Below, piece after piece: positions 10,121-64,000 of a stretch of 64,000 nucleotides of DNA. Every line of letters starts with the position of its first letter. Position 1 is the first letter of the stretch. The stretch spans positions 36,431 through 100,430 of the forward strand of contig JAIQEY010000018.1 in the NCBI GenBank assembly GCA_020073565.1, in the 5' to 3' direction. A program made the position numbers and the translations under genes. The notes below the pieces were generated by a model. That model did no database searches, had not been told where the DNA came from, and saw only the letters and a program-made list of their open reading frames with translations. Source of the DNA: Terriglobia bacterium. GTDB lineage: Bacteria; Acidobacteriota; Terriglobia; Terriglobales; Acidobacteriaceae.

Positions 10121-10423
10121 TTCATGAATACACTGCTCTGCAGTCTCCTAATAATCGCCGCCTGATCGCAGGTGGGCCGACGCAGGCTGCCCACCGCTGC
10201 AGCTATGATTATCCGTAAATATAGACCGAGATTTCTGTGGTTTTCCGGATATCGTCGCCCAAAACATAGAACTACGGCCCGCTATCTCAATTATTTTCAA
10301 GGCTTTACGATCTCTTACCTTTGGGTCGCTGCTTGCTACGAAACAGTCACAGACTAAAGGGTCAGACAGCCGCCTGTCTCTCCGAATAGTCTTGCTACTT
10401 CTTTTAGTCTGATAAGGAGCTAC

Positions 10424-21286: not shown

Positions 21287-21361
21287 GGCGCTATCGTCTA
21301 GGGGTTAGGACGGAAGATTCTCAATCTTCAAACCCGGGTTCGATTCCCGGTAGCGCTACCA
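21287..21361 (+). tRNA. tRNA-Glu (anticodon CUC)
   Basis: Cloverleaf folded by hand: acceptor GGCGCTA/TAGCGCT, D arm GTCT..GGAC, anticodon stem GAAGA/TCTTC with loop TTCTCAA, T arm CCGGG-TTCGATT-CCCGG, encoded CCA. Confidence 0.85.
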
Positions 21362-30890: not shown

Positions 30891-31357
30891 CTCAACCTCC
30901 TTCTACTATTGCGGCTGGCGAGATGCCCAGTTGAGGCGCCGGACTTGGGCATTTCGATCAGCTGTCTCGGATTCTGGCGACCTGCCGAGGATGGCAGGTT
31001 CTTCTTGTTGCAGCCGTCTTCGACCGCACCAGGCAAAAAGCTGTGCGAAGGCAAGCGCAGCCGGGATATCCATCTGGACCATAGCCAGTCCTCCCAACCG
31101 CGAGTCGGATGATTCGATTCTAGTGCGAAGTTGAAGGGGCAGCGCTGGTTTCTAGTTCTGGGTGAAGAAATCGCCACCACAACTTTCCCGAAATGGAACT
31201 CCCCCGGAAGCTCAAAACCAGATAGTTCCGTCTCAGGGAGAACGCTTCCTGACCAGCCGAACGCTGGCCAACGGGCCGTAGTATTGCAGCCGCGAGCAGT
31301 TGCGCCTCTTCGAGTCGAATCCGGCGTGACCAACGCATGACTGCGCCAGAGAACTCG

Positions 31358-31431
31358 CGACCCCGGAGGGAGTCGAACCCCCAACCCTCAGATCCGAAGT
31401 CTGATGCTCTATCCAATTGAGCTACGGGGCC
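31358..31431 (-). tRNA. tRNA-Arg (anticodon UCG)
   Basis: Reverse complement GGCCCCGTAGCTCAATTGGATAGAGC-ATCAGA-CTTCGGA-TCTGA...GGGGGTTCGACTCCCTC-CGGGGTC-G folds as a cloverleaf. No encoded CCA. Confidence 0.85.
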
Positions 31432-43795: not shown

Positions 43796-44204
43796 ACGGC
43801 CGCCGTTCTGCGGTGTGCGAACCAGCTCACTTCAGACGGAGAGATGAGCAAAGAAAAATCCAGCGGTTGTGGTCTGGACTCACACGCGCTGCCCAACACA
43901 TTCGAAGCAGGGCAAGCACCAAGAACTCGCGGGTATTCTCACAATACCCACAAAAAAGCTTTAGCATGATGGCAAACAGCAGGTCTGTGACCCAAGTCAC
44001 ACGGGCACAGCAAGATGGCGGAATTGTGTGCGAAGCGAATCCTCTTATTAACGTGTTTCGCACCGCAGAGGGGCGAACGAGCGGGTTGTGTCTAAGCGTG
44101 CAACAGAAATTCAGGATCGTCCGGCAGGCCGCTCGGCGCCGTCCGTTGGGGTCGGCATGCTACCATGTCATTTTCGCAGTAAATCCCATGGAGAGCCAAT
44201 TCTG

Positions 44205-45296
44205 ATGATTCGCAAGTGGTTTGTGTTTATCTTGCTCGGGACGCTGGCCTATGGACAGGCGGCGTCCGTCCCCGTTCCACCGGCCTCCACCCAGCCTGCG
44301 GCAACCGCGACCGAGAAGCCAGCGGAACCGCAGGTGGCGCCCACCGATCCCGTGATCACCGTTCAAGGAGTTTGCGCCGATGCCTCAAAAACGGGCGATT
44401 CCTGCAAGACCGTGATCACCAAAGAGCAGTTCGAGAAGCTGGCCAACTCACTGCAGCCGAATATGACGTTGCCTGTGCGCCGCCAGCTGGCGACGGCGTA
44501 TGCGCGCATGCTCGTCATGACGGCGGAGGCGGAAAAACGCGGCCTCGACAAGCGGTCGCAATTCGATGAAACTCTGCGCTTCGCGCGCATGCAGATTCTC
44601 TCTCAGCAACTCACGCGCGACCTGCAGGAGGATTCGCAAAAGGTGCCCGACGCCGACATCGAGAAGTACTACAAGGAAAACGCCGGAGCCTACGACGAGG
44701 CGACCTTGCTGCGCATCTTTATTCCCAAGAGCAAGCAGATCCCGCCGCCCGAGCCCGCGGTGCGTGCAGGCAAGGGTGGCGCAGCAAAGCCTGCTGTGAA
44801 GGAAAAGCCCATCGATCCGGCCGCCCGGGAAAAAGCGGCGCAGGAAGCAATGACCAAAGTCGCCGCGGACCTGCGTGCCCGCGCGGTCAACGGAGAAGAC
44901 GTCGAGAAACTGCAGAAGGAAGCTTTCGTCAGTGCCGGCTTAAAGAGCAGTGCCCCGCCCACTAAAATGGACAAGGTGCGGCAAACAACGCTTCCCCGAT
45001 CCCACAAGTCGGTGATCGATCTGAAGCCCGGTGAGGTATCCGCGGTGATCGACGATCCCAGCGGACACTACATTTACAAATTGGTCAGCAAGCAAACGCT
45101 GTCGCTCGACGCAGTGAAACCGGAAATCCGCAACACCATGTCTTCGCAGCGCTACCGCGACGCCATGCAGCCCTTCCAGGCGAGTCCCGATCTCAACCAG
45201 GCCTACTTCGGCGAAATCAAGAATCCAGCCCTGCCGCTCCGGCCCGGTCAGCCACCATCCAAGCCAACCCAGGGCGACGACGATGACCCCGATTGA
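44205..45296 (+). CDS. Secreted parvulin-type peptidyl-prolyl isomerase (SurA/PrsA-like)
   Basis: Signal peptide from the ATG at 44205. SurA-like N-terminal chaperone region. PGEVSAVIDDPSGHYIYKL rotamase-like segment. Confidence 0.75.
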   Translation: MIRKWFVFILLGTLAYGQAASVPVPPASTQPAATATEKPAEPQVAPTDPVITVQGVCADASKTGDSCKTVITKEQFEKLANSLQPNMTLPVRRQLATAYARMLVMTAEAEKRGLDKRSQFDETLRFARMQILSQQLTRDLQEDSQKVPDADIEKYYKENAGAYDEATLLRIFIPKSKQIPPPEPAVRAGKGGAAKPAVKEKPIDPAAREKAAQEAMTKVAADLRARAVNGEDVEKLQKEAFVSAGLKSSAPPTKMDKVRQTTLPRSHKSVIDLKPGEVSAVIDDPSGHYIYKLVSKQTLSLDAVKPEIRNTMSSQRYRDAMQPFQASPDLNQAYFGEIKNPALPLRPGQPPSKPTQGDDDDPD

Positions 45297-45379
45297 TCCA
45301 GGAACGCGATGATCCCAGCCGTCATGGTCAACGGAGTCTGGCAGCCCATGCTGCAAGTGCAGAGGAAGATAGCGGGCGG

Positions 45380-46081
45380 TCAGCGGTACGTCAGACTTGG
45401 ATAAAAGTCTGCGCCCCGGCCTTCCGGCGTGAAATCCAGCAGGTTCCACAGCGGCCAAATCATGTCGACGTGGCGCTGGTTCTGCCCCGGCTCGGGCGGA
45501 GCCAACAGAAGTTCGGTATGGAAAAAGTGGTGAATCTTCTGGCCCCGCCGCACAAAGACATTCAGTGATGGCTGTTGGCCTCCTTCCGCATTTTCGCCGT
45601 AGTAGTCGCGATTGTAGTCGTTGCCGGCGGAGGAGAGCAGACGCAATCGACTCCATCCCCGCTCGCGCGCGAAGCTTCGGATTCTCTCCAGCGGAGACTT
45701 TGCCACGACCGCAAGATTGATGCGCTGAGCGGCATGGACGGCGGTGCCGTCCAGGCTGTCGAGCATGGAAGTGCACATCGGACACGCCGCTTTCATCTTG
45801 GGTCCAAACATGAAGCTGTAGATGGCCAGAGTGTCTTTGCCGGTTTGAAACAGTTGGGAAAGGGACACCTGCCGCACGCTGTCCGGGGCGCTAAGATCGG
45901 CTGAGCCCTCTTCAAAGACATAGTCTTCCGGTATCTCGCCACCCAGGGGAAGTTGGCGACGGAGAGCTGCCACTTCTTCGACCCGCCGCCTCAGGTCGAT
46001 TTCTGCCTGCAGCAATTGGTTGCGAGCCAGGCGGTAGGAATCACTTTCACCGGGGAATCGAAAGGAGTGAGAGTCGGCCAT
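45380..46081 (-). CDS. DUF899-family thioredoxin-like protein
   Basis: Family-typical ...RRQLP...DYVFEEG...LSQLF...YSFMFGP....CPMCTS..D.L.G...H...R.INLAVVAKSPLERI..F...RGW. ATG 46081 with a GGAGGA RBS. Confidence 0.8.
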   Translation of the reverse strand: MADSHSFRFPGESDSYRLARNQLLQAEIDLRRRVEEVAALRRQLPLGGEIPEDYVFEEGSADLSAPDSVRQVSLSQLFQTGKDTLAIYSFMFGPKMKAACPMCTSMLDSLDGTAVHAAQRINLAVVAKSPLERIRSFARERGWSRLRLLSSAGNDYNRDYYGENAEGGQQPSLNVFVRRGQKIHHFFHTELLLAPPEPGQNQRHVDMIWPLWNLLDFTPEGRGADFYPSLTYR

Positions 46082-46285
46082 ATCTTCCTCCAAGGGCACA
46101 ACTGACCGCTGGGCCCGAACGGTATTGGATTTGGACATTCTGCCAGCTTTCGCCGGAGATTGGAACGGCAGGATCGGAGACTCTCGGTCTGACCGGAAAC
46201 TCAGAAGCGAACGTCACAAGATGGAGGTTGTTCATGACCCCGCATGCGCAACGCGGCTACGATTCAACAGGCTCAGTTGGTGAAA

Positions 46286-46309
46286 TGGCGGAGGCGTGTG
46301 CGAGTCGAA
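46286..46309 (-). repeat. Direct repeat of the 3' terminal 24 nt of tRNA-Sec (putative distal att site)
   Basis: tggcggaGgcgtgtgcgagtcgaa versus tggcggaAgcgtgtgcgagtcgaa at 59813-59836 (23/24, same orientation). It covers the T-loop through CCA of the tRNA. Confidence 0.8.
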
Positions 46310-47056
46310 TCCGCCTTGAACCTAACATTCAACAAGATACAGAGCAGCGGTAGGCAGTTTTAACCGTATTAGTACATGGTAAGCAGTGGCAATGGCATGT
46401 GAACAGCATGTGGAACCCCAGACCTCTACCGTATCAAGTTAATTGATCTTAGTACAGCAGGAGCGGGCAGTCTGGCACGGACTCACTGCTTCTTCTTTTC
46501 TTTCAGGAGGTTTACACACCCCTCCAAAGTGGACATAGCACGTTTTCTCATTGCATCCTGCGCTAGAAGAAACTCGCTGTACATTTTAAATGCAGTCTCC
46601 GACACCGTATAGAGGAGCATAGAGGCATCCAAGCATGCCTGCACGAGGTGCAGGTATCTCTGGTTTTCGGAGGTGTTCCCCACCATCCCTTGGAAGCCCC
46701 GACTCCATTCCGGCCTGCCCCATGCATACCGACATGTTGCGACTGGCGTCATCGAGATAGCCAACCAAGAGAAATCCCGCTGGCCCGTTGAAGCCGTCGG
46801 GCGACTTCTTCAAACGTGCGAGAAGATCGCGGGCCGCCGTCAACACTTCCCGATCCTAACGAAGCGAACGTGGCGCGGACAAGACGGAGCAAAACCATTA
46901 CTTCTCGGCACCCGGCTCGACGTACTGGCACATGCCCTGAAGGAGAATGCCAATAATCGTTGCCCTTACGTGTGCGCTGCTGTTGCGCTGCCGCGCGAGC
47001 TATCGACGCTTACATCGAAAAGGAAGAAGGAGAAGCGGCTTCAACAGAAATAGAAC

Positions 47057-47215
47057 GTGGCGCAGGCAAACTCCCAGAAAATTTTCAATTCAACACCAAC
47101 TCTCCCCTTCTTCATCGCCTTGCTGGTGTTCGGTCCCAAGAAACTGCCCGAGTTGGGCAAAGGCACCGGTAAAGGGATTCGTGTTTTCAAGAACGAAATT
47201 TCTTGGCATCGCTAG
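47057..47215 (+). CDS. TatA/TatE-like small protein, probably a truncated remnant
   Basis: Hand translation, not in the ORF track (52 aa, GTG start): ...TLPFFIALLVFGPKKLPELGKGTGKGIRVFKNEISWHR*. It matches the TatA TM helix-hinge-amphipathic helix core, but both termini are atypical or short. Confidence 0.4.
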   Translation: MAQANSQKIFNSTPTLPFFIALLVFGPKKLPELGKGTGKGIRVFKNEISWHR

Positions 47216-47916
47216 AATTTCCTGTGCTTTCGTTTCGCTTCCGACATGCGCGTCATCGCAGTCAATCACATTCTGTCTCCGCCGACGAAGTAATCACTGT
47301 GCAAGTCAACAGCTTGTCAATAGCGAGCTTAATAGTGATACGACAACGGCTCGACGGACTAGGTAATCGCCGGAAGATGAATAGTGGCACTGAATAAATT
47401 CAGTCACGACCTGAAATTGTGGTTGACAGTGGCCTCTGGGGGGGTATAGTAGGCTGGTCAAAAACGGGAAAACGAAATTCGGGTTCGAAGGCGTGAAAGC
47501 TCTCCGGGGTCCGAAAGGGTACGCCCAAGGAGGAAAGTATAATTGCTCTCGAAACGCCTACCATCATCACAAAGTGACCGATTTTAGAGCGTGTCACAAT
47601 CTGTCACAATTCGCGTTGGGATTTTGCCGTTTCAAACGCCCCGCCGCACGGAAACTCACGAGTCCTTGCCGCTCACTCGGCCCGGCTCACCGCCGTTGGG
47701 GACTAGATGCGCTCACGGGATCGGCGTCGTGGCCGTTGGGTTTTGATTCCGCGTCCGGTTCGGTCTTGCCGTTGGGATCGCCATCAGAATCGGCCCCATC
47801 CGCATAACAGATTGCGCCGGCAGTCGTTGCGCGTCCCGGTCTTCGCCTGGCGCAAGGTTGTCGCAACGACGTTGAGGGGAAACTGCGAGATGGCTTTCTC
47901 GATCATGTTCTTGAAT

Positions 47917-49134
47917 CTATGGGCGCTGTGGTTGTGGGTTGGAGGCTGGGGGCAGATCCAGTCTCTTCCAGAGTGCTTTCCGTTTCTCGACATCTTCGTG
48001 CTGCAACTGTGTCGCTTTCTGAAATTCGTGCTCCGACTCAGCCTTTTGTCCCAATCGGCCGTAAGTGAGGCCGAGATAATAATGCGCTTCCAGGAGCGAA
48101 TCGTCGTTGGCTGTAGCCCGCCGCAGAAGTTCGACAGTCTGGGTGTAATGTTTCTGCTGAAATTCGAGTCTCCCCAACGCCGATAAAGCGCCCGCATGTT
48201 TCGGATCGCGATCGAGCACGTGCTGCAAATTAGCTCTGGCCGGGCCCCAGTTGTCGGCAAGGAGTTCCAATACTCCAAGCCGAAAGTAAGCCTCGGTTTG
48301 TTCTGGCGCAAGCGCAATCGATCGCTCGAACTGAGTTCGGGCTTCGTCCGGCCGCTCGAGAGCCGCAAGAGTCATGCCCAGCGAGCAGTAACCCGAGGGA
48401 TCGTCCGGACTTAAAGTGATGTAATACGCGAACTGCTGGCGAGCCTCGTCGAGTTCTCCCAAGCCGCCGTATGCGCGGCCCAGGCCATACACAGCGAACG
48501 GGTCATCCTTGCGCTGCGACAAGGTTTCCTTAAAACCGTCGACCGCATCCTGCAACAACGACATCTGAAAAGCCGCCGTTGCGAACTCGAATTGTACGTC
48601 GGGATTTTTGGGCGCAAGCTTTCTCGCCTCAATCAGCAATCCCAGCGCTTGTTTCGGGTCGTCGCTGCTCGCTGCCGTCTGAGCATGCTCTCGGAGAATG
48701 TGCACCAGTGCGTCAGATGCGTCGGTGCGAGCGGGATCGAGCTTGATAGCTGTTTGCAGTTCGGGAACAGCTTCATCTTCGCGGCGGGTCTGCAGGTAAA
48801 GAAGGCCAAGGTGCGCGTGCGCGCTGGCGAAATCTGGCTTGCTCTGAATGGCTCGCTGGAAGAGGGTTTCGGCATCTATCTGGCGACGCTGCAAAATGCG
48901 GACTACGCCCAGCAAATCCAAGGCGCGATATTCCTTGGGAGCGGCGCGCAGCACCCGTTGCAACTCACCTTCGGCGCGATCCAGATTTCCAGCAGAGAGA
49001 AACTGGACAGCATGGCTCAGCCGAGTCGCAGTTGCATCTTGGGCGAAGCTCGGCGCAGTAAATATCGCCAGCCAGATCAGTGCAAACATCGAGGCGAATC
49101 GCGCTCGGCAGGAGTCTTGAGAGTGCAAGTCCAT
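47917..49134 (-). CDS. Secreted TPR-repeat protein
   Basis: Signal-like MDLHSQDSCRARFASMFALIWLAIFTAPSFA. About 10 TPR units (AHAHLGLLYL, YGLGRAYGG, YCSLGMTL, YFRLGVLE, HYYLGLTYG). Confidence 0.7.
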   Translation of the reverse strand: MDLHSQDSCRARFASMFALIWLAIFTAPSFAQDATATRLSHAVQFLSAGNLDRAEGELQRVLRAAPKEYRALDLLGVVRILQRRQIDAETLFQRAIQSKPDFASAHAHLGLLYLQTRREDEAVPELQTAIKLDPARTDASDALVHILREHAQTAASSDDPKQALGLLIEARKLAPKNPDVQFEFATAAFQMSLLQDAVDGFKETLSQRKDDPFAVYGLGRAYGGLGELDEARQQFAYYITLSPDDPSGYCSLGMTLAALERPDEARTQFERSIALAPEQTEAYFRLGVLELLADNWGPARANLQHVLDRDPKHAGALSALGRLEFQQKHYTQTVELLRRATANDDSLLEAHYYLGLTYGRLGQKAESEHEFQKATQLQHEDVEKRKALWKRLDLPPASNPQPQRP

Positions 49135-49266
49135 TAACCTACAACGGGTCTCAAACTGTTCTCGAATGTGCAGCGGGGATTTCCTGGTTGTCAGCCGCAG
49201 CCTTCTTATTGTACCTACACAATCGACTGGCACGCTGGCTGGGTCGGCTGCAATGAAGCACGCGAG

Positions 49267-50003
49267 TTAGCACGCCGCTCGATGTCCCATCGGTTTCACG
49301 GGCGGTTTGCCTGCTGCCAACGCCGTCATTCCGCCGCCCGCCAGCTAAACTCCGCCTGGCGGTAAACGAAGCATCATCGCTGCGCAACAACGCGATTAGT
49401 TTTGCAACTTCTTCGGGACGCGCGATTCGGCCAAGCGCATGCAGGTGTGCGATTTCCTGAAGCAGAGAGGCTAAATCCTCCATATTTTGTACGCTCGACC
49501 GGAACATCGGGGTATCGACGGCGCCCGGGGAAACGCAATGCACGCGAATGTTATCCTGCGCGTGATCAACTGCAAGAGCTCGAGTCAGTCCTGCGATGGC
49601 ATGCTTGCTGGTCACGTAAGCGACCGAGTCCGGCAAAGTCCTTACCGCTTGTACGGATGAAACATTCACGACCGAAGCACCAGCACTCTTCATCAAGAGA
49701 AAGAATGCGCGGAAGGTGAGAAATATTCCTTTGACATTGATGGCCATGACTTCGTCCCAGGTTCTCTCCGACGTGGTCGCGTCGGTGCCGTATCGCTGAA
49801 TGCCCGCGCTGTTCACGAGAAACGCAACGTTTCCGAATTCTTTCGAGATCTGAGCAGCAGCGCGTCACTTGGTGAGACGAAGAAACGTCGCAAGAGATGA
49901 AGCGCGCGTTGGAGCTAATCGCGGATGGCGGAGCGCGGTCGAGAAGTACAACCTTGGCTGCCAGAAGACTTGCCATCAATCCGCCATCAAAACTAAGCTG
50001 TTT
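49267..50003 (-). pseudogene. Short-chain dehydrogenase/reductase (SDR) pseudogene
   Basis: SDR core is readable (KVVLLDR..CDVSS..|frameshift near 49865|..EFGNVAFLVNSAGIQ...NVSSV...YVTSKHAIAGLTRALA...VHCVSPGAVDTPM...). A second frameshift before GGGMTA lies near 49340. The TGxxxGIG glycine motif is deleted. Confidence 0.7.
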
Positions 50004-50480
50004 TGAGCTGTTTTCAGATGTGGGAAAATGCGGAAAAGCCAGATGAGGAAAGGGTTTTAGGGTTGTGACCTCAAAATTGACACGATAGAGGTTTGGGGTT
50101 CGAGTCTCTAATGGAACGCGTCCAGTAGCTCGGCAACGCGTTCTAGGGGGGGTAGTCAGGCCTACCCTCCCACCCTCAATTTCCGAATTTTGACCCTCAA
50201 AAGGGTGTGGGGCGCAAGTGTCTGTTCCTACATCGTTCGCATACTTCGCGTTTTTCGCCTTCTGCGCTTGGTGCAGGATATGGAGTCTAGTTTGCTGACT
50301 ACCGCTGTAGTCTTTTCCTGGCAACGCGGCATAGGAATGTGCCGCGCAAGCGGCGCACCCGGCCAAGCCAGGGCAGATTGCAAGAACGAGAATGAAGGCT
50401 GGACGGAAACCACAATCCGTAAAGTGGACTCCCAGATCGAAGACGCGCTGCCCGGCAAGCTCTTCGTAGTGCGTCGTATT

Positions 50481-53400
50481 CTACTTGCAGTCCGCGCAAC
50501 AGACTCCTGGAACCGACGTCAGAGGCGAAGTGCGTAAGATACGGAAGTTTCCGAGAGCATCCGTGAGGGGTTGTGCGAAATCTTCCGACTGAAAACCTGC
50601 GGCCGTACCCCTGCCAGAGCCTGATCTTTCTCCCAAAACGTTAGTTGATAAGTCGCTATTAACGGTGGCAACGCCGGCGGCTGCGGGTACGACTAATGCT
50701 CCCAGCGTAGGCATCATTTCAACACAAAGAACACTCAGAGAAGCATCCAGGGGAAGGCCAAGTTCGCGCAAGGCATTCAGAATCTCGCGGTGGGACCAGC
50801 GTGTCTCGGCTTGGGCTGGAGCGTCGAAGTTCTGAAACCCGACCAGCGTGGGTCCGAACGGCCGGTCGAGCTTGCCCCGGAATCTGGGGACGACGTTCAG
50901 TTTGCGGTCCCCCAGCAGGATATTGCGGAAGTCTTTACCATCGGCTTGGTGGACCTGCGCATACAAAAGGGCCCAAATCTCGGTGCGCGGTGGATCGTGA
51001 GTGATGTTTTTTCCGTTCAGGACCGCCATGGCGTATGGCGCTTCAATGATCAAGTCATCCTGTGCGCGCTTGCAGGTACAGAAGAGAGTAGGAGCGGGAT
51101 GCTGAGCTCCCGTAGTGCGCAACGAACGCCCCCAACGGCCGTGCGCAGTTGACCAGATGTGGGCGTGTCCCACACGCAGTTCGTAGGTAAAGAAGCCAAA
51201 CAACTCGGGGCTGTCGGGATTGAGGCCGTGAGGCAGGCGAACAAGGAAGTGTACCTTGCTGTTGCCAGCCGGTTCCAGCCGGACCATGGCTGACAGACCG
51301 GCCTCGTCATCGGTCGCATTTTGGGGTATGACACGGATCAATTCAGGATCGATCGGAAGTGGCGGCTCCTCTTGTGGAGTAAACGTCTCAATGCGATCGT
51401 CGGACAAAAGTGGATCAGGTGCGTAGCCGAGGAAGCGAATGAAATACTCGTCGTTTGGATCGCGTATCGGCTCCTCCATCTCAAGCCACAGAAAGCGGCG
51501 ACGCGCCTCAGTGGATGCGTAATCTTTGCTGCGCTCGTATTTCGAGAGAGCCAGACCAGCCGATACGATCCGCGGCACCTGCGCTGGAGGCGTCGTAACC
51601 GGCAAATCCAAATGCAACTTGAAGGAAGCCGGATCATCACTATGGACCGGTGGACTAGCGAAATGCGGTTGCACGTCGTAGTCAAGCTCTATGATGTCGG
51701 GACAACGTGTTTCGGTCGCAGAGCCAGCCAGCATCAACTCGGATTTCGGTTCGACCGCGTCGAGGAAGATGAGCGTAGTATGTCCGCGCTGCGGATCTTG
51801 AAGCGCCTGGATGGTTGCGGTGGGTGTGAGTTCCCAGTCACCCACCGGTTTGCCGCCGTTGTCGTCGGTTTCGGCATCCGATCGGAAATGCTTCTTGCGG
51901 AAGAATTCAAAACTCACTGGTTGAAGGTTGCTCCATGTCCAGTCACGTCCCAGATCGAACGTAATTGCGACGATCCAATGATTGATCAGGTCTTCTTTGG
52001 CGGCAAAGGTCAGCGACGAATGGTCCGGCGCGAGCGAGTGCCGGATGCGGCGCGAACAGCCGAACACAACGCGTTCGCCTGTCTTCGCCACCAGTGTCAT
52101 ACCTCTGTGATCGACTGCGATTTCATGCGCCAGGCGTTCGATCATGGCCGGACTGCTGCCCGTGGTGCGCTGGAAGATGAGCGAATTCAGCGTACCGTCC
52201 CACGCTGGAGGCGGATCGGGCTGCAAGTAAACACCGCGGATTCTCTTGGATGCGACGAGATTGGTTTCGTCGGAAGATTCGTGCCGCACCTTTATCTGAA
52301 CAGGCTTGCCGACGTTCGTGTTCGGAGCGAAGTATGCCGCACCATCGTCAGCGACGGCACGGATAGTCAGGCGAACGTCACGTGCTGTGGGCAGAACGAT
52401 CTGAGGCAGAGCGTCCAACTCGGCCTGAGTCAAGCCCAAGTCGCCCAGGTCAGCCGGGTCCTCGAACTTCAGAACTTGAGCGTCCCGGAACTCGAGTGGA
52501 ATCACAGATGGCTGATCGAACGCAACGGGAAACTTTCGATCTGTAGTGTAAAACGCGATGTATGGATCACGTCCGGACAACGATAGCAGATTGTCCATGC
52601 GCAACGTTTTCACCTCAACCTCGATTTGCACACGAGTTACATCGGGGTCAGGGATTCCGAAACTGCTCTTACCGACGGCTGCGTCTGAAGCCGCTTTGAG
52701 CAGCGGAATAGGATCAATATACTTTCCGGTAAACACAACTGCTGGATAGCCAAGTAGTGGACGATTCACTTTCAGGGAGTTTCCTGCAAACAATTCATTG
52801 TCCACTGGCAAGCCCTCAATACGGACCGGCTCGGGCACCACGTGGCGACGGAAGGAAATCGTGGTGATGGCAGGAGCAGAGGCTGGGATGGGGGGGATAA
52901 GAGGACTAACGTCCGGCCCCTTCGGCCCTCCACCGGTGGGATCCATGAGCCTGATCCGGAAGTCATAAGTCTCGCCATAGCGAAGAGGAATCTGGGCCAG
53001 ACCCAGCGGATCATAGAGACGTCCCAGATTGGCCTTTTTGTTCTTATCCTGTTCCGTCTTGTACAGGACTGCCGCATCTTCGTCTGGGAGCACCAGGGAC
53101 TTGCCATTCCATTGCGAGAAATACGACGGCAGCCAGAACTGGCTTGTGTCTTGATAGCCGTCGAGCTGTTGCGGATGCACTTCTACCGGCAGTTCTTCTG
53201 TCACCTTGCCAAGTGAAACGGTGTCAATCTTTATGTCGGTCTTGCTGCGTACTCGTACTAAGCTGTGCCATTCCGTTTCCGGATGTTTTCGCGCATCGAT
53301 GCGATATCCGAAAACGCCCATGGGCGCGTCGAGTCGCTGCGGCTGTCCGGCGATTTTAGGAGCAGTTGGATCAGCCTGCAGCTGGCGACTCTGCCAGATG

Positions 53401-54398
53401 AGGATCTGCTCGTCATCCCATCCCAGCCGGATGCCAATATCGGTCAGCGGTGAGAAGCCGTCGGGATCTTCGGCCAGTAGGTTTTGGCTGACGGGCTGGA
53501 CAGCGTGAACGATCTTTGCGTAGCCATCGTCGTAATCGGCGGCCTCAATAAATACCTCATCATAGTTACCCGGCACTACGGGCGGGCCAGGAATCGAATT
53601 CAGAACTGGGAACAACACCGCGGCGAATACCTGCCGCCGCTTGTTCTTCTCAAGCGCAGGAATGCGCGCAGCGTAGCGCTTCAGAAAATCGAAGTCAGCA
53701 ACAACTTGCGAGGCGTACTCGCTATCGGCAGCCAAATCTACATATACGAAGCCTCCTTTCGCAAACAGGCCGCCATCAACCTTGAAGCTAGCCGACCGGA
53801 TGAGACCCAGGTGCCGCGCCAATTGTGGATGACGCAGACAGAAGGCGTAAATCTCGCCCCAACTAACGTCATCGGACGAAGGAACAAATGCCGGGTTGAG
53901 TTCTTTCTTAGCCTTAATCGCGCACTGATAGCTATCGTCAGTTACTGCACCCAGAGTGCGGGAACCGGTGAAAAGGAACGACTCGCGATAACTGCGCGGC
54001 AGGTACTTCATGATCGGAGTTCCCTGCTGGCAAGGTCCCGCGAGTCTCGGAGCCAAGATTGACAGTTTGAAACGGCCAGGAGCTGGCGCGATCAGCGATT
54101 GGAACAATTTCCGTGCCTCAACAAGTGCGCCATTTGCCTCCGGAAGTGGGGCGTTAAAATCCACCGGAGTGTTGACGGGAAACCGGCTCAGTCCATCTAG
54201 CGCGCGAACCTGAAATCTCAGGTCTGCATCGGCGAACGCGGCCGTGGTGTCGCCGAGATTGGGGAAGTTCTGAATCACCGGCAGAAGGGGGTCCCCATTC
54301 CACAAGTTGCTCAGCCGTGGCACTACCAGGATGTTCAGATGCAGCCGGTTTCCATCGAACTCCTGCGGGAATGTCAAAATACTGATTCGCGGATCCAT
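50481..54398 (-). CDS. Giant hypothetical protein B (about 1,305 aa), no recognisable domain
   Basis: Uninterrupted ORF. The ATG at 54398 lies 14 nt downstream of the stop of the preceding giant gene (the ORF is also open to a TTG at 54440). No known motif recognised. Confidence 0.75.
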   Translation of the reverse strand: MDPRISILTFPQEFDGNRLHLNILVVPRLSNLWNGDPLLPVIQNFPNLGDTTAAFADADLRFQVRALDGLSRFPVNTPVDFNAPLPEANGALVEARKLFQSLIAPAPGRFKLSILAPRLAGPCQQGTPIMKYLPRSYRESFLFTGSRTLGAVTDDSYQCAIKAKKELNPAFVPSSDDVSWGEIYAFCLRHPQLARHLGLIRSASFKVDGGLFAKGGFVYVDLAADSEYASQVVADFDFLKRYAARIPALEKNKRRQVFAAVLFPVLNSIPGPPVVPGNYDEVFIEAADYDDGYAKIVHAVQPVSQNLLAEDPDGFSPLTDIGIRLGWDDEQILIWQSRQLQADPTAPKIAGQPQRLDAPMGVFGYRIDARKHPETEWHSLVRVRSKTDIKIDTVSLGKVTEELPVEVHPQQLDGYQDTSQFWLPSYFSQWNGKSLVLPDEDAAVLYKTEQDKNKKANLGRLYDPLGLAQIPLRYGETYDFRIRLMDPTGGGPKGPDVSPLIPPIPASAPAITTISFRRHVVPEPVRIEGLPVDNELFAGNSLKVNRPLLGYPAVVFTGKYIDPIPLLKAASDAAVGKSSFGIPDPDVTRVQIEVEVKTLRMDNLLSLSGRDPYIAFYTTDRKFPVAFDQPSVIPLEFRDAQVLKFEDPADLGDLGLTQAELDALPQIVLPTARDVRLTIRAVADDGAAYFAPNTNVGKPVQIKVRHESSDETNLVASKRIRGVYLQPDPPPAWDGTLNSLIFQRTTGSSPAMIERLAHEIAVDHRGMTLVAKTGERVVFGCSRRIRHSLAPDHSSLTFAAKEDLINHWIVAITFDLGRDWTWSNLQPVSFEFFRKKHFRSDAETDDNGGKPVGDWELTPTATIQALQDPQRGHTTLIFLDAVEPKSELMLAGSATETRCPDIIELDYDVQPHFASPPVHSDDPASFKLHLDLPVTTPPAQVPRIVSAGLALSKYERSKDYASTEARRRFLWLEMEEPIRDPNDEYFIRFLGYAPDPLLSDDRIETFTPQEEPPLPIDPELIRVIPQNATDDEAGLSAMVRLEPAGNSKVHFLVRLPHGLNPDSPELFGFFTYELRVGHAHIWSTAHGRWGRSLRTTGAQHPAPTLFCTCKRAQDDLIIEAPYAMAVLNGKNITHDPPRTEIWALLYAQVHQADGKDFRNILLGDRKLNVVPRFRGKLDRPFGPTLVGFQNFDAPAQAETRWSHREILNALRELGLPLDASLSVLCVEMMPTLGALVVPAAAGVATVNSDLSTNVLGERSGSGRGTAAGFQSEDFAQPLTDALGNFRILRTSPLTSVPGVCCADCK

Positions 54399-54412
54399 AG
54401 CTGTGCCTCTGG

Positions 54413-57400
54413 TCAGGCGATCTGCCTGGTTTCTTGCCAACTCTTGGAAAAGTGGAGATTGATCACTAGGAAGATGCTGATATCAAGGCCGAACGTGACT
54501 TGTGCGGCCAAATCGGTTTCGCTTCCAATGCGGTGGTAAATTCCCTGCGCTTCAATCTGGATCTGTACGGTGACGATGCCATCGAGAATCTCCGCGCGCC
54601 CCCGGAACAGAAGGAAGGCCGCGACCGTGATCTGGCTTGTATCCAGATCAACCTGGACACCCACCATGTAGAGCAGCGAGACGGTGCCAATGACGGGTAG
54701 TCCCACCGCGATCTCTGCACCAAAGCCAAACTTCATGTGGAGCGAGGGACCCGTCTTGATGTCGGCGGCCGTGCGGAGGTCGACTGAACCAACGGCGTAA
54801 ACGGTGGCCACAGCCAGACTTACGCACATCACGGACAGGCTTCCGCCAAATTCGAGAAAGGCCCCGGCTGACGGGATCAACTGGCTGGGCGCATTGGGGA
54901 TGGACATCGCCTCATTGAAGTACACACCGACTGCGAGGTGCGCCTCGAGCTTCAACGGATTGCTTGGGTTGTCGTATGCGATACCCGGTGGAAACCTCAC
55001 CGCTGGAATTTCTTTGCGCGCATGGAAGGCGTAATTCCAACTATCGGCCGAGTTGCTCATCGCAATCTCGAGACCCTTTTCGAAAGCAGCCTTGTAATCA
55101 CCCCCCTGCAACTGATCGAGGATCTGCAAGATGTCAACAACGGGTTGGAGCTCTTTGCTGAATATCAGTTGCGGCTCCTTGAATGACGGGTCAGAACCCT
55201 TCTCCGTATCGAACTTGCCCTTGATCATCATCAGGCGCGTTATCGACCCCAGGTCGACCACCATAGCGATGTCATTCACCTTCGACAGCCATTGATTCCC
55301 CAAGCTGTTGGCCGCCGAATCGAACCCGTAGCGCAAAACACCAGGTCCAATCAGCTTGCCATCCCGGTCCTTGTTTGAATATTCAACGTATAGCTTGAAA
55401 AACTGCTCGTTGATCAGATAGAGCGGGCCGTCAGGGAGCGTCTCCTCGAAGACCTTCGCCGGATTGGCCGGGTCTAGCAGTTTGTAACCTTCCGCCAAAA
55501 TCTTGGTCTGGAACGCTCCGAGATTGAGTGAGAGCGCATCCCGGATATTTGGGAAAATAGCCTTCGTGTTGACCAGTCGGTAAGCGTCTGCGAAATCGGG
55601 CGTCGCGGACTTAAGCTCCTGGACGCCCTCCTGGAAACTGGGCAGACGAAAAAGTGCTTTCTGGGTATTGGTAGATTGCAACAGACCGAAGTTGCGCGTG
55701 TTCGGTCCGGGCGCTTGCACCAAGTCCAGCGGGTTGGCGATGCGGACCAGATCTGCCGGCGTGGTGTCGGTACTCGTCGCGTCAGGAGAAAGTTTTCCGC
55801 GACGGATAACGGGAACTGTCGCTTGCGGATCGAGAGGCGAGACCTCCCCGGTGCCTTGATTGTGCTGCACCACGCTCCAGGAGCCATCCTTGGGCAGCAC
55901 AACCGCACCACGGGCCGCACTGACAAAAATCGGGCCCGAGGCGTCGGTCGAAGCGTTCACGTCCACGCGGCTTATACGTATCTGCTGTCCGCTCTTGCCC
56001 ACATCTAGGACGGCAGCAATCTGGCCGCCAAGGCCGACGAACTGGCTGGCAAGCAACTGTACAAACAGGAAGTCCGGGATCGGTTCTCCGCGTGGCGCAA
56101 GCTGGACGTAGCCGAGCATTCCTTTGGAAGGAACGCGGCCCCTCACCGCGCCACTAATCACATAATCAATTTGAACGTCGGCATCGAAGTATACCGGCTG
56201 AAGGATAACGGCAGGATTGCGCACATCAGGCGGCGTGAAGCTATCCACACTATGCTCGATGCCCTCGCTGTCCAGATATGTATCGCCGATCTTTTTGTTC
56301 CAGATCTGCTGGAAACGAGGAACGACGCTGGTCTCCTGGATGTTCTTTACCTTGAAAACGCCCTTGACCAGACCGGGATGAAACACATACGGATTGGGGC
56401 GGGGCAAAGGGTTGAAGCCACTATCGAACACGTTGTAGCGAAAATCGTAGATGCCGTCCGACTCCGCTTGCCAGCCGGTGTCAAACCGGAAGACATAGCC
56501 ATCGCTGGCGCGCGTCATGGTGATGGTGCGCACCACGTGAATGCCCCAGGGATAAATCAAGCTACGCACCTGAATGACTTCCTGCGCGGTGCGTCCGCTA
56601 AAAACATCAAAATAAGATTTGCTGGTAGCGGCAATGGCTGCCGACGGGTCCTCCCAATGACTGAAGATATTTGCGCCGTAGCCGCAGAAGTCGATCCGGC
56701 TCAGCGGTACGCCGGAAGGCTTGAATGCCACCGGCGGATCATAGAAGAACTCTTTGTTGAAGATGGTACCGACGCTGTCCCCCAGCGTTCCCGCGAAGGT
56801 TGGCACTCCGAAAGGATCGAGTACGTTGTTTAGTTGCAGCGTGCCTCCGGCAAAGAGCGGGCTTTTCACCGGATGGACTGGGGCATCGGCTCGCACTTGC
56901 AAAGCACCCTTTACTCCGCCGCCCTCATACTCCGGCTTGAACAACCCAAGCTGCGCTGGAGCTAAAGCGGGATTGAACTGATTCGTTCGACTGAATTCTG
57001 CAAAAGCACGCAGCCCAAAGGGCAGCGTAAACAGCGCACCTGTGAATCCATTTTTCCGTTCATCGAAATCCTGTACGAGAAACTCAGTCACCGGTATCGG
57101 CGCGATTGGAACTAGCTTGACACTATCGTTGAACAGGCGCGTTGGACCGCCGTCATTGGAATAGAGGTTCCAGCCAAACGGTGGATCTCCGGCCAAGGTC
57201 TTTTGCGATAAGTTGAACAGTGGTTCCCAGCTAACTTGTGGCAACGTAAACGCGCGTACGTACCTACTTTGCGCCGACAAATCGAGTTGCTGCACTTCCA
57301 ATGGAAATGCCGGTTGCTGATCGTTTCCCACGGGTTTGTAAATCCGGTAGAAAGTCAGGTCTCTTTCCGTCAGCGCGGCGTCATTGAACCAGGCGAAGCT

Positions 57401-59479
57401 CACGCCCATCTGGTCAGCGTTGGTGGAGACATCCAGCAACGCGAACTGCTCGTAGTCGAAGACCTTGAAGAAGCGATCCCAGTCGCCCTGGTTTGATCCA
57501 CGTCTGCTGAAGCTGGCTTGGAAGGCCGTCTCCTGCGGAAACGTTTGTCCGGCGGTCTCGAGTGTTGCAGAGCTCAACTCTTGTTGCTGCTTGGCGGCGT
57601 TGGTCCAAACAGCGATGGTATCCTGCTGCGTGCCCAGCGGAGCGAAGTAGAAGCTAATCGTGACATCATCCGGATCCTCATCTTTGGGCGCTTTCGTCCA
57701 CGCAACCAGGGCAACCAGAAGCATGCTGGGTCGCGCCATCCGCTGGCCGTCACGATTGGACCGTCGCAGCCAGCTGACGTTAGCGGCATACGGATCAGGC
57801 AGCGTGGGCAGTAATCCAAACAGTCCCATGCCCAGCCACAGGGACGCTTGTTGGACAGTTTCCTCATCCAGCAATTCGGCAAATAGCAGCAGGCTGTTCA
57901 CCGGCGTGATTGTGAACAGGGCATTGTGAATCGCCAGCGAGATAAGATGCCCGGGCTCCACCGGCCATTTCACCTGGGGATCTAGGCTGTCCACTAGAAT
58001 GTTGTCATCATAAACAAACGCAAACTGCTGCCCATCGGTATAGGTCAGAAGCACAAGCGACTTCAGGGTGTGGATGGGAAAGGGAGTCCCCTTCACGTCC
58101 ACGGGCCGGTCAAAGCGCCCTTCAATGTCGGCCTGGGCAAGAACCAACTCGTTACCGCTGGCCGCACAGGCGTATGTCACCGAGAAGGAATCGGTATACT
58201 GCAGATCCATCTCCGAACGAAATTTGGAATCGGCGTCCTTCCAAAGCAAGAATCGCTGGTGCGCATAACGATTCGAGGCCTGAGGATCGGTGATCACGAT
58301 CACGCCCGGCCCGAGCGCAACCCAGGGCGCGCGCAGACGGATAGGCCCATCTCGTAGCCCACGCCAGCTGAGGGTTAAATTCTCGGCGGTCCGGACGGCG
58401 AGTCCACCGTCTCCGGCAGCCTCTGTTGGATTGGCGACGTCGATCAGCGCAACCGGCAACGTCCATCCCGATCGCTGAATCGCTGCTTCCCCGGCAAGCA
58501 CTACAAACGGAGATTTCGATGTCCCTACCTCAAATGCGTTCTTCGAAACACGGAGGGGAATCACCATCGATAGCAATGAAGGTTCGTAGGTGGGCGCAGA
58601 AGCTGCGATCCAACTAAACCCCAGCGTCTTGTCATAGAGCTTCCATTGGGCGTCCGTTAGCTTTCTGACCGTAATCTGGCTCGCCTGAAGTTCGAAGACG
58701 AACTCGTCAGGAGTGGTCAAGGTGGCATTGGAGGCATCGGTGCCCGCGTTACCGGGAGCAGCACCGGGCTGCTGACTGGGTGAAAGCTGCAAGTCAACTT
58801 CGCATTTGCAGCCGAGAGGCATCGTGAGCTTTCCACCAACGTCGGTTGGCGGGGCGCTGAAAGAAAGGGTGCCGGCTTTTATGCGAAGGCCCACGTAACC
58901 GCCGGCTGGAGCGGCGGTCGCCAATAGATCAGCGCGAATCCAGAAGCTTGATTTGCCAAGTTTGTGTTGCTTTCCGACAGGGGGCGGAGCAGCTATGAAT
59001 GTTTTCTCGTAAAACAATAGTGCCGGTTGGGAGTCGCCTGGCAGATAGACCGGAACCATTCGGACAATCTGGAAGAAATCAAACCAGTACAACCGCCCAT
59101 CCACACTGTGGAACGGGCCTAGTGAGTGTTGGGCCAGCGCGCCACGTCCCCAGACTGGCGATGCTAGCTCGAGCATGGGGGCAGCGACTGGAGCCTCGCG
59201 GCGGAAGACCAGGAACTCTGGTGCTTGGTCCGGTTTCAGTTGTTTGAGCAACCGTCCAATTCGTTGCCGCCGGTCCTGACCCAGATTCTCGGGCGCGTTA
59301 AACGTTGCCCGGTCGATAGCCAGCGAACGGGGAGTAACCGCGGTATTCGGATCGTCGATGCGCGACCGAACGAGCAACTTCTCCAACTCGATGAGCTCTT
59401 CGTTTTCCTGCGGGGCCTGAGGCCTCAAGGTCACCGAAAGACTGGCCAAGCGGGACTGCAAGTCGTTCCGAGGGACCAT
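54413..59479 (-). CDS. Giant hypothetical protein A (about 1,688 aa), no recognisable domain; beta-rich hydrophobic C-terminal module
   Basis: Uninterrupted ORF. The ATG at 59479 is preceded by AGGAG (59486-59490); the ORF track extends to a TTG at 59566. No known motif recognised. Confidence 0.75.
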   Translation of the reverse strand: MVPRNDLQSRLASLSVTLRPQAPQENEELIELEKLLVRSRIDDPNTAVTPRSLAIDRATFNAPENLGQDRRQRIGRLLKQLKPDQAPEFLVFRREAPVAAPMLELASPVWGRGALAQHSLGPFHSVDGRLYWFDFFQIVRMVPVYLPGDSQPALLFYEKTFIAAPPPVGKQHKLGKSSFWIRADLLATAAPAGGYVGLRIKAGTLSFSAPPTDVGGKLTMPLGCKCEVDLQLSPSQQPGAAPGNAGTDASNATLTTPDEFVFELQASQITVRKLTDAQWKLYDKTLGFSWIAASAPTYEPSLLSMVIPLRVSKNAFEVGTSKSPFVVLAGEAAIQRSGWTLPVALIDVANPTEAAGDGGLAVRTAENLTLSWRGLRDGPIRLRAPWVALGPGVIVITDPQASNRYAHQRFLLWKDADSKFRSEMDLQYTDSFSVTYACAASGNELVLAQADIEGRFDRPVDVKGTPFPIHTLKSLVLLTYTDGQQFAFVYDDNILVDSLDPQVKWPVEPGHLISLAIHNALFTITPVNSLLLFAELLDEETVQQASLWLGMGLFGLLPTLPDPYAANVSWLRRSNRDGQRMARPSMLLVALVAWTKAPKDEDPDDVTISFYFAPLGTQQDTIAVWTNAAKQQQELSSATLETAGQTFPQETAFQASFSRRGSNQGDWDRFFKVFDYEQFALLDVSTNADQMGVSFAWFNDAALTERDLTFYRIYKPVGNDQQPAFPLEVQQLDLSAQSRYVRAFTLPQVSWEPLFNLSQKTLAGDPPFGWNLYSNDGGPTRLFNDSVKLVPIAPIPVTEFLVQDFDERKNGFTGALFTLPFGLRAFAEFSRTNQFNPALAPAQLGLFKPEYEGGGVKGALQVRADAPVHPVKSPLFAGGTLQLNNVLDPFGVPTFAGTLGDSVGTIFNKEFFYDPPVAFKPSGVPLSRIDFCGYGANIFSHWEDPSAAIAATSKSYFDVFSGRTAQEVIQVRSLIYPWGIHVVRTITMTRASDGYVFRFDTGWQAESDGIYDFRYNVFDSGFNPLPRPNPYVFHPGLVKGVFKVKNIQETSVVPRFQQIWNKKIGDTYLDSEGIEHSVDSFTPPDVRNPAVILQPVYFDADVQIDYVISGAVRGRVPSKGMLGYVQLAPRGEPIPDFLFVQLLASQFVGLGGQIAAVLDVGKSGQQIRISRVDVNASTDASGPIFVSAARGAVVLPKDGSWSVVQHNQGTGEVSPLDPQATVPVIRRGKLSPDATSTDTTPADLVRIANPLDLVQAPGPNTRNFGLLQSTNTQKALFRLPSFQEGVQELKSATPDFADAYRLVNTKAIFPNIRDALSLNLGAFQTKILAEGYKLLDPANPAKVFEETLPDGPLYLINEQFFKLYVEYSNKDRDGKLIGPGVLRYGFDSAANSLGNQWLSKVNDIAMVVDLGSITRLMMIKGKFDTEKGSDPSFKEPQLIFSKELQPVVDILQILDQLQGGDYKAAFEKGLEIAMSNSADSWNYAFHARKEIPAVRFPPGIAYDNPSNPLKLEAHLAVGVYFNEAMSIPNAPSQLIPSAGAFLEFGGSLSVMCVSLAVATVYAVGSVDLRTAADIKTGPSLHMKFGFGAEIAVGLPVIGTVSLLYMVGVQVDLDTSQITVAAFLLFRGRAEILDGIVTVQIQIEAQGIYHRIGSETDLAAQVTFGLDISIFLVINLHFSKSWQETRQIA

Positions 59480-59812
59480 ACTGATCTCCTGATTTAGCTC
59501 GGGCAGCATACGCGTCTGCCCAACGCTTTTATCTTGTGCGCTGCCAGTGGCGGGAGTGAAAGACAAGGATTGTGCAATCTTCGGGCGAATCGCTGAGAGT
59601 GTGCCTCAATGTTCGAGTTGAGATGACGGATCAAAATCTGGGACTCTTTCACCGGCCGAGAATTGGCGCACATGACCCACGAGAAGAGCATTAACGACCT
59701 AGCGTTCAGCCCGGACGGTAAGTATCGCGTTTTTATCACACCACCCGGGGTTGACACGCTTGGTCGCAGATTAAGACAACTCTTGGAATCTCCTAGGCCA
59801 TTGAACCCAAAC

Positions 59813-59909
59813 TGGCGGAAGCGTGTGCGAGTCGAACGCACCGGCGACAGGATTCCTGCCGCCCGCCGGTTTTGAAGACCGGGAGGATCACCGGACCCCA
59901 TGCGCTTCC
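59813..59909 (-). tRNA. selC: tRNA-Sec (selenocysteine, anticodon UCA)
   Basis: 97 nt: GGAAGCG...acceptor...CGCTTCC-G-CCA. Anticodon arm CCGGT-CTTCAAA-ACCGG. Long extra arm GGCGGCAGG-AAT-CCTGTCGCC. T arm GTGCG-TTCGACT-CGCAC. Closely parallels E. coli selC as I recall it. Confidence 0.88.
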
Positions 59910-63210: not shown

Positions 63211-64000
63211 TTAACCAGTTAGTACGGTGGGTACCCCCCTCCCCCCGGTCTTTTGGAATCATGGAGTTAGGTTGTGGAAACACTCCAAAATCTAGATTCG
63301 CAAAGACTTACCTGTAAAATATTCCGAAATAAGGACTTACAGTTGTCAAAGAGCGCTGAAAAGCTTTGGGGCAGCGCCGGGTGAGACCGTCCTGTGGACG
63401 GGCACACCAAAGCGCTGCCCCATTCAGTTCGCAGTGTCGCACGGGTGGAAGTCGGTGTCGGTGATGGGGAGCACGGATGTGAGTGACTGGGGTGGCCCGC
63501 GTCTCGCGGTTTTCGAGACGCGGGGCCTTTCGTCGCGATCACCTAACTTTTTTCATCACGATTGAACTGTATGCCGGTCACCGCGTTAAGAACGAGCCAC
63601 CGCCTACTCTGGCTGACATGCCGTGGAATCTGAAGCGATACTATGGCGCAGGCGATCTTCATTTCATCACGTGCAGTTGTTACCGTCGGCGGCAGATGCT
63701 TGGAACGGAGCAGCGCCGCGATCTGTTCCTGACTGTTCTTGAGCAGGTTCGCCGCCGGTACCAGTTCGTGGTGCTGGGCTACGTCGTCATGCCCGAGCAC
63801 ATCCATCTGCTGATCAGCGAACCGCAGGAAATGACTCCTTCGACGGTCATGCAAGCTCTGAAACTCGGCTTTGCCCGCCGTGTAATCGCAGAAGCAAAGC
63901 GAGGGAAACTGGCCGGAACGGACTCTGCTCCGCAGCGCGTTTGGGAGAAATGATTCCAAAAGACAGGGGGAGGGGGGTACCAATCTAACTCACTAGTTAA
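63211..64000. mobile_element. REPtron-like unit: truncated RAYT gene flanked by about 35-nt imperfect inverted repeats (right repeat ends at the window edge)
   Basis: Left: ttaaccagttagtacggtgggtacccccctccccc (63211-63245). Right: gggggaggggggtaccaatctaactcactagttaa (63966-64000). The core ggtacccccctccccc is exactly inverted. Internal hairpins at 63369-63421 and 63494-63527. Confidence 0.7.
63618..63953 (+). pseudogene. REP-associated tyrosine transposase (RAYT, IS200/Y1 family), C-terminally truncated
   Basis: YHFITCSCYRRR, VVLGYVVMPEHIHLLI (HUH motif). It stops at ...RVWEK, before the helix carrying the catalytic Tyr. Confidence 0.65.

Follow-up and report, generated by a model that had tools for sequence, protein, structure and literature searches.

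How did a second copy of the 3' end of a tRNA gene come to lie 13.5 kb away from that gene, with a giant operon and the debris of other genes in between? The question is raised by selC, which encodes the selenocysteine tRNA (tRNA-Sec), in a metagenome-assembled genome (MAG) of the Terriglobia/Acidobacteriia, from the uncultured soil Acidobacteriota; a stretch of 64,000 nucleotides of this genome (contig JAIQEY010000018.1) was analysed and is called here the window. We consider it probable that positions 44016-59836 of the window are what is left of two integrative elements, both decayed and without an integrase, which lie in tandem at the 3' end of selC and are similar to cis-mobilizable elements (CIMEs). 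As such, the island is of a well-known kind, an ordinary tRNA-linked genomic island scar that involves no new mechanism.

The array is delimited by selC itself and by three co-oriented copies of its 3' end, designated direct repeats (DR) 1 to 3:

59813..59909, minus strand: selC, intact tRNA-Sec gene with anticodon UCA (tca in the DNA), the integration target, called by ARAGORN and backed by Rfam RF01852 (71 bits, gathering score 47)
59813..59836, minus strand: DR1, the putative attachment (att) core within selC, T-loop to CCA, reference copy of the 24-mer
46286..46309, minus strand: DR2, displaced copy of the selC 3' end, 23 of 24 positions identical, distal end of the proximal 13.5-kb remnant
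44016..44039, minus strand: DR3, the most decayed copy, 20 of 24 positions identical, probable outer boundary of the array

The 24-mer TGGCGGAAGCGTGTGCGAGTCGAA forms the 3' end of selC, spanning T-loop to CCA, and an earlier note on this DNA had claimed that it recurs at DR2 in the same orientation with one mismatch. This was confirmed, and no match with three or fewer mismatches was reached in 100 dinucleotide shuffles of the window, the chance expectation for the DR1/DR2 pair being about zero. It had also been claimed that similarity decays right outside the repeat, and indeed identity reaches 25 of 27 positions (46283-46309 versus 59810-59836) and ends beyond that. The third copy, DR3, was recovered by a relaxed scan of the window and lies 2.27 kb past DR2, in a 290-nt intergenic gap between a Ser/Thr kinase-tetratricopeptide repeat (TPR) gene and a gene for a peptidyl-prolyl isomerase (PPIase)-like protein. 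Mismatches relative to selC rise with distance, from one in DR2 to four in DR3. The layout is therefore selC/DR1, 13.5 kb (segment A, which holds the giant two-gene operon G1-G2), DR2, 2.25 kb (segment B, which holds a DUF899 gene and the PPIase-like gene) and DR3.

The interpretation of these repeats as att-type scars of tyrosine-integrase integration into selC, which the earlier note had proposed along with an old, immobilised element, is supported because relatives with an identical tRNA 3' end carry integrases right after selC and because the same 24-mer bounds other islands. The evidence comes from two scans, one of genomes (one GTDB genome per species), with the neighbouring peroxiredoxin (Prx) as query, and one of metagenomes, with the 30 nt at the 3' end of the tRNA as query, which returned 80 contigs. 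In the genomes, the order ABC-RR-PhzF-Prx-selC was found to be kept in 11 members of the Acidobacteriaceae/Terriglobia, and in all 11 both the similarity to the window and the conserved synteny stop at the 3' end of selC, with variable DNA beginning right after the CCA; the first downstream gene examined differs among nine of them. One of these genomes (locus L045), in which the tRNA 3' end is identical to that in the window, encodes a 388-aa Phage_integrase protein 12 nt past selC, followed by a DUF3987 gene. Among metagenome contigs, the 3' half of the selC of the window is identical in at least 80, and the 80 contigs with the same tRNA end display 77 distinct downstream flanks. A tyrosine integrase, or a truncated remnant of one, lies within 400 nt of selC in 15 of these 80 contigs, and two integrase families are represented: family A, the L045 type, of which five copies are full-length, two are truncated by the end of the contig and two are remnants, and family B, with C-terminal fragments only plus one copy cut by a contig end.

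Segments bounded by the repeat and devoid of an intact integrase seem to be recurrent at selC. Among them there are a 1.5-kb island (L162, 68-1637) with an exact repeat of the 24-mer, whose content is a decayed integrase tail only, and a 2.5-kb island (L130, 728-3259) with two mismatches in the repeat, the identity of which runs 7 nt further into the T-stem, and with SIS and MFS genes but no integrase. Within this clade selC is thus an active hot spot for integration, with the 24-mer as its att core rather than a dispersed repeat, and integrases are commonly lost there. An origin of the repeats in an integrase-independent process, either a partial duplication of the tRNA gene or chance, would agree with a window that holds no recombinase; yet the repeats span exactly the T-loop-to-CCA segment that is used by tRNA-targeting integrases, with a chance expectation of about zero, and the same repeat accompanies integrases or their remnants at selC in other genomes, making such an origin extremely improbable.

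Some further features of the selC loci were noticed in these comparisons. In the metagenomic locus L111 the order is selC, integrase, an HTH_17 excisionase-like gene and cargo, and a second, weak integrase-like gene (9609-10685) is found 8.5 kb past the integrase adjacent to selC, which suggests that elements are in tandem there too. A T-rich motif, TTT(N)TTTCAA(Y)(R)(R)CTTAC, occurs about 20-25 nt past the selC CCA in many of the loci L088-L167, whose flanks are otherwise unrelated, and also at 59790-59812 and 46270-46285 of the window; it is present with or without a downstream integrase and may prolong the att site, belong to the end of an integrase gene or serve as a tRNA 3'-trailer signal. 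On the opposite side of selC in the window, 3.6 kb from it, there is an IS200/IS605-type Y1 transposase gene (63483-63953, plus strand; Pfam Y1_Tnp, public gene call). The other tRNA genes of the window encode tRNA-Glu (21287-21361) and tRNA-Arg (31357-31431).

Whether the repeats delimit one island or two depends on DR3 and on the two genes of segment B:

45380..46138, minus strand: DUF899 gene (Pfam DUF899, E 4.7e-49), assigned to the cargo of the older, distal remnant
44088..45296, plus strand: PPIase-like gene (Pfam Rotamase_2, E 1.5e-7), assigned to the cargo of the same distal remnant

Since DR3 lies beyond both of them, the DUF899 and PPIase-like genes would fall inside an older remnant. 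The earlier note had described a single 13.5-kb island bounded by selC and the repeat; of this description, the two repeats stand as att scars, while DR3 speaks against a single island set in chromosomal backbone. If there were only one island, DR3 would be a chance match and the DUF899 and PPIase-like genes would belong to the backbone, an arrangement in keeping with the four mismatches of DR3, with its recovery from a post hoc relaxed scan and with the backbone-like GC content at third codon positions (GC3) of segment B. Against it, a match of the quality of DR3 on that strand arose in just 9 of 20000 permutations (about 5e-4; analytic expectation 3e-4), and DR3 is intergenic, co-oriented with the other copies and 2.27 kb outward of DR2. 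In addition, the outer flank of DR2, TTTCACCAACTG, is similar to the flank that follows selC in L126, L105 and L154, and in L126 and L154 an integrase or a remnant of one comes next; the flank of DR3 bears no such resemblance. Finally, the DUF899 gene has no conserved neighbourhood even among homologues with 82-86% amino acid identity. On balance, a single island appears unlikely.

The tandem arrangement also bears on the search for an empty site. The earlier note had predicted an empty site that joins the DUF899 gene to selC; none was found in the relatives, and with DUF899 lying within a remnant such a junction is therefore the wrong one to expect. Approached through the right flank, all 11 syntenic loci proved to have different downstream DNA, with DUF899 in none of them. 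Approached through the left flank, the DUF899 homologues were found in unrelated contexts with no selC nearby, and nucleotide similarity at these loci is limited to the gene itself; the tandem model explains why such close homologues lie in unrelated neighbourhoods away from selC. The 13.5 kb of segment A are absent from the other 91 selC loci examined, none of which joins selC to the left flank of the window.

Several points weigh against a tandem array of selC elements, and they are best considered together. No exact empty site, that is, an island-free allele, was found in the 11 syntenic genomes, the 80 contigs and the DUF899 loci. In none of the relatives fetched is synteny conserved on the left flank, so that the outer boundary is placed by the repeats alone, and the outermost of these, DR3, is a 20/24 match from a post hoc scan. 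No synteny was found between the open reading frames (ORFs) of the window left of 47 kb and the DNA downstream of selC in relatives, and the PPIase-like gene has no syntenic counterpart in any fetched locus. The contrast in composition is modest, segment B having a backbone-like GC3 of 0.67-0.72. The integrase has left no surviving trace, and from the intact relatives we infer that int and xis were formerly present. Lastly, in every other locus seen, G1-G2 neither adjoins selC nor lies within an integrase element.

With respect to composition, the profiles proposed in the earlier note as a check did show a lower GC and GC3 inside the island and a reversal of the skew slope, the contrast being modest and segment B backbone-like. 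GC is 0.52-0.58 within the island versus about 0.60 in the left flank, with the lowest values (0.52-0.53) at 46.5-48 kb; cumulative GC skew drops on both flanks and is flat and then climbing from about 46 to 59.5 kb; GC3 is 0.61-0.66 for the island genes versus mostly 0.65-0.78 elsewhere.

The claim that no integrase or excisionase ORF is present between the repeats held in every search made. No recombinase or excisionase domain was found with Pfam, either on individual ORFs or on translations of 46310-47930 (all six frames) and 59470-59835 (the three plus frames). In a search of the entire 64 kb, translated in six frames, with a hidden Markov model (HMM) built from seven selC-adjacent integrases, no match scored better than E 1.4. 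A tblastn search with the integrases of related selC loci, the check suggested earlier for the arms at 46.3-47.9 and 59.48-59.81 kb, detected no integrase or remnant, with a best E of 0.48. This best match, at 59578-59718 with the L001 integrase, was rejected as a remnant, Pfam identifying a WD40-like fragment there. No relaxase or conjugation gene was detected in the island with Pfam and PHROGs, and the same two resources gave no match to a phage structural or replication module or to a conjugation module; the island is therefore not classed as a prophage or as an integrative and conjugative element (ICE).

The integrase-less segments might still be mobilised, in the manner of CIMEs, in cis or in trans by a selC integrase that is encoded elsewhere or incoming. 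The near-intact DR1/DR2 pair (23/24) and the recurrence in other contigs of integrase-less mini-islands with the same core would fit such a behaviour, and tandem accretion with cis-mobilisation has been documented in other phyla (PMC5704250). On the other hand, there is no integrase in the 64-kb window, and the mismatch in DR2 and the four in DR3 suggest neutral decay. A search for the 24-mer, as the element-borne site attP, gave no match in the viral contigs of IMG/VR, and neither an island-free strain variant nor a circular form was found in the public assemblies that hold this genome, in which the contigs with identical proteins all represent the same sequence from the same genome. Present mobility is thus quite unlikely, and more speculative still, though conceivable, is that the selC segments are working CIME-type cassettes that are moved by Terriglobia selC integrases and offer one route by which G1-G2 spreads between lineages, to which we would give little credence.

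In independent Logan assemblies of this DNA, contigs break at the same two places, 59838/59842 (at tRNA-Sec) and 47122-47136 (at a TatA motif). These shared breaks were considered as possible presence/absence variation and rejected as such, for they fall at conserved k-mers shared with other community members, where the assembly graph presumably branches.

The contents of segment A other than the operon are largely relics, and all of the items listed in the earlier note, namely an AT-richer arm, a tatA-like fragment, a TPR gene, a frameshifted short-chain dehydrogenase (SDR) gene and the giant operon, were found:

59627..59740, plus strand: WD40-like fragment, a weak match (Pfam WD40, E 0.0027 on the frame translation)
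49151..50000, minus strand: SDR pseudogene, degenerate at the N-terminus and frameshifted near 49865
47917..49233, minus strand: TPR-repeat gene, apparently intact, a 390-aa gene call in the public assembly, with matches to Pfam TPR families (best E 2e-31)
46310..47916, no strand: AT-richer arm, GC 0.52-0.53, with no credible gene

The decay of these other genes, as had been claimed, is evident in the SDR and TatA relics. In the SDR pseudogene, the Pfam adh_short match begins only at profile position 77-83, and the N-terminal beta2-beta3 region lies in a different frame. In the AT-richer arm, a truncated TatA is encoded at 47108-47203 (plus strand; Pfam TatA_B_E, E 1.4e-12), covering profile positions 10-41 of 53, and apart from TatA_B_E nothing was found there in a six-frame Pfam scan and no match in a PHROG search. 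This gene-poor arm also contains a near-consensus sigma-70-like promoter at 47423-47450 (plus strand; TTGACA, 16 nt, TATAGT, 11/12), with no convincing ORF downstream. The WD40-like fragment lies within the 333 nt that separate selC from the start called for G1, the position that the integrase takes in intact relatives. As a result, the only intact genes of the proximal remnant are the TPR gene and those of the operon.

The operon itself comprises two very large genes:

54413..59479, minus strand: G1, 1688 aa, no known domain, beta-rich, with about 250 C-terminal aa predicted to be barrel-like
50481..54398, minus strand: G2, 1305 aa, no known domain, predicted array of beta-sandwich domains

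The G2 start lies 14 nt past the G1 stop. Neither protein has a match in Pfam, NCBIfam, PADLOC, PHROGs or the sequences of the PDB. Homologues are nevertheless numerous, 106 for G1 and 1193 for G2 among the matches listed, and those of G2 occur in Acidobacteriota, Myxococcota (Sorangium), Actinomycetota, Chloroflexota and Alphaproteobacteria, with Nordella and Rubrimonas among the carriers; Sorangium sp. So ce302 and Nordella sp. HKS 07 are carriers that can be cultivated. The two genes are always paired, and identity between phyla is 50-65%. In agreement with the earlier note, the operon is intact and under purifying selection, with dN/dS values relative to the L001 copy of 0.076 for G1 and 0.053 for G2, in a comparison in which dS is saturated.

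Structure models give a few hints about the two proteins. AlphaFold2 (AF2) models were obtained with pLDDT 76 for G1 and 75 for G2. In Foldseek searches, the C-terminal portion of about 250 residues of G1 matched the beta-domain of BrkA (probability 0.99, TM-score 0.38) and OmpG (probability 0.93), the TM-scores of G1 to outer-membrane barrels reaching up to 0.38. Compared with viral proteins, G1 had TM-scores of at most 0.16 among significant matches, and 0.4 was reached only for short porin-like barrels with E above 0.1. For G2 there were only generic Ig/FN3-like matches, with low TM-scores. No obvious signal peptide was apparent on reading of the G1 and G2 translations. G1 and G2 might form an envelope-associated two-protein complex, which we offer as a low-confidence guess.

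Was this operon the original cargo of a selC element? The earlier note took it to be so, and that it has remained intact under selection is borne out, while its status as original cargo is not demonstrated. G1-G2 is missing from the other 91 selC loci, and its neighbours are unrelated in five other loci (including L001, L213, L214 and L215); given these unrelated contexts and the lack of adjacency to selC, the operon need not therefore be original cargo. It could instead have arrived later, in a remnant already decaying, by a separate recombination that displaced the int-xis end, never having been cargo of a selC element, even if the att scars are real. Its position fits this, because G1 starts 333 nt from selC and the operon is located where int and xis lie in intact relatives, with broken genes on both sides (the WD40-like fragment and the SDR pseudogene). 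The same can be said of its behaviour elsewhere: in Sorangium the pair lies between IS21 copies, toxin-antitoxin genes are found 0.9-2 kb downstream of it in two other loci (MAGs), and nucleotide similarity between the window and L001 begins 10 nt ahead of the G1 start and ends with the G2 stop. On the other side, no junction or repeat marks a secondary insertion, and a joint arrival with the adjacent TPR gene would be compatible with GC3, which is alike in G1-G2 (0.61-0.66) and in that gene (0.61). G1-G2 was also examined as a possible transposable unit of its own, and no repeats or inverted repeats to this effect were found. The position at int-xis between broken genes thus favours replacement, but no secondary junction is visible, and a separate, later arrival is in our judgement quite possible without being the expected course of events. 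G1-G2 is an accessory module that has probably been horizontally transferred.

Returning to the tandem array as the preferred reading of the locus, its history is probably as follows. Elements with a selC-specific tyrosine integrase would enter by recombination between their attP and the part of the tRNA gene that runs from T-loop to CCA, and each incoming element would bring a new tRNA 3' end, keeping selC intact and leaving the displaced copy at the far side of the insert. A first element would have been inserted in this way and have decayed to the 2.25-kb segment with the DUF899 and PPIase-like genes, bounded by DR2 and DR3. A second element would then have entered the restored selC and pushed the first outward, by accretion. 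From this second element, too, int and xis would have disappeared, and decay of the greater part of its genes would have left the TatA and WD40 fragments, the frameshifted SDR gene and the AT-rich arm. G1-G2 is retained by purifying selection. The order of the insertion events is what we infer from this layout.

Viewed in this way, the locus indicates that selC is a frequent target of integration in Terriglobia, where the core used is a defined stretch of 24 nt and the integrases belong to two families or more; few members of this phylum have been cultured. It also provides a clean case of tandem accretion and decay outside Firmicutes and Proteobacteria, in which these processes are usually described. 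The giant operon is a more intriguing object than the island but constitutes a separate question, and flagging G1-G2 as a strongly conserved accessory module should be of use to later work on these proteins.

Genomic islands are in general recognisable by direct repeats at tRNA genes (PMC2704930), and the window has both the insertion at the 3' end of an intact tRNA gene and the direct repeats of the tRNA 3' end that characterise islands of this type; an encoded integrase, functional or cryptic, is another of their features and is lacking in the window. The closest analogues by target are the selC islands of enterobacteria (e.g. AGI-3; PMC2704930), which resemble the island described here in being inserted at the 3' end of the tRNA-Sec gene, in carrying variable cargo and in having their far border marked by a directly repeated copy of the tRNA end. 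The window differs from them in belonging to Acidobacteriota (Terriglobia), in having no integrase left and in carrying cargo unrelated to virulence. Islands at selC in Enterobacteriaceae also include LEE, PAI I-536 and SHI-2. With regard to the position of the repeat, one class of tRNA-targeting tyrosine integrases, said to have been described by Williams in Nucleic Acids Res in 2002, reportedly uses a T-loop sublocation, with an identity block from the T-loop to the tRNA 3' end. The identity block of the window likewise runs from the T-loop to the tRNA 3' end.

Also related in kind are the intact Terriglobia elements L045, L091, L103, L111, L115 and L151, in which the tRNA-Sec 3' end and the att core are identical to those of the window, insertion is directly after the CCA and the upstream synteny PhzF-Prx-selC is the same where visible. 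Unlike the window, these six keep a tyrosine integrase of 367-388 aa, 12-40 nt past selC, and L111 in addition has its excisionase-like gene; G1-G2 is present in none of them.

For the arrangement as a whole, CIMEs and tandem accretion provide the published framework (PMC5704250), with ICESt1/ICESt3 of Streptococcus thermophilus as the model. Compared with CIMEs, the derivation of the window segments from an ICE or an integrative and mobilizable element (IME) would be an indirect one to trace, no conjugation or mobilisation gene or remnant having been seen, and divergence of the core repeats has already set in. As in CIMEs, which keep attL and attR, each segment has a repeat at either end (DR1 and DR2 for segment A, DR2 and DR3 for segment B), and the resulting order DR1, segment A, DR2, segment B, DR3, with decay that rises outward, fits the published pattern.

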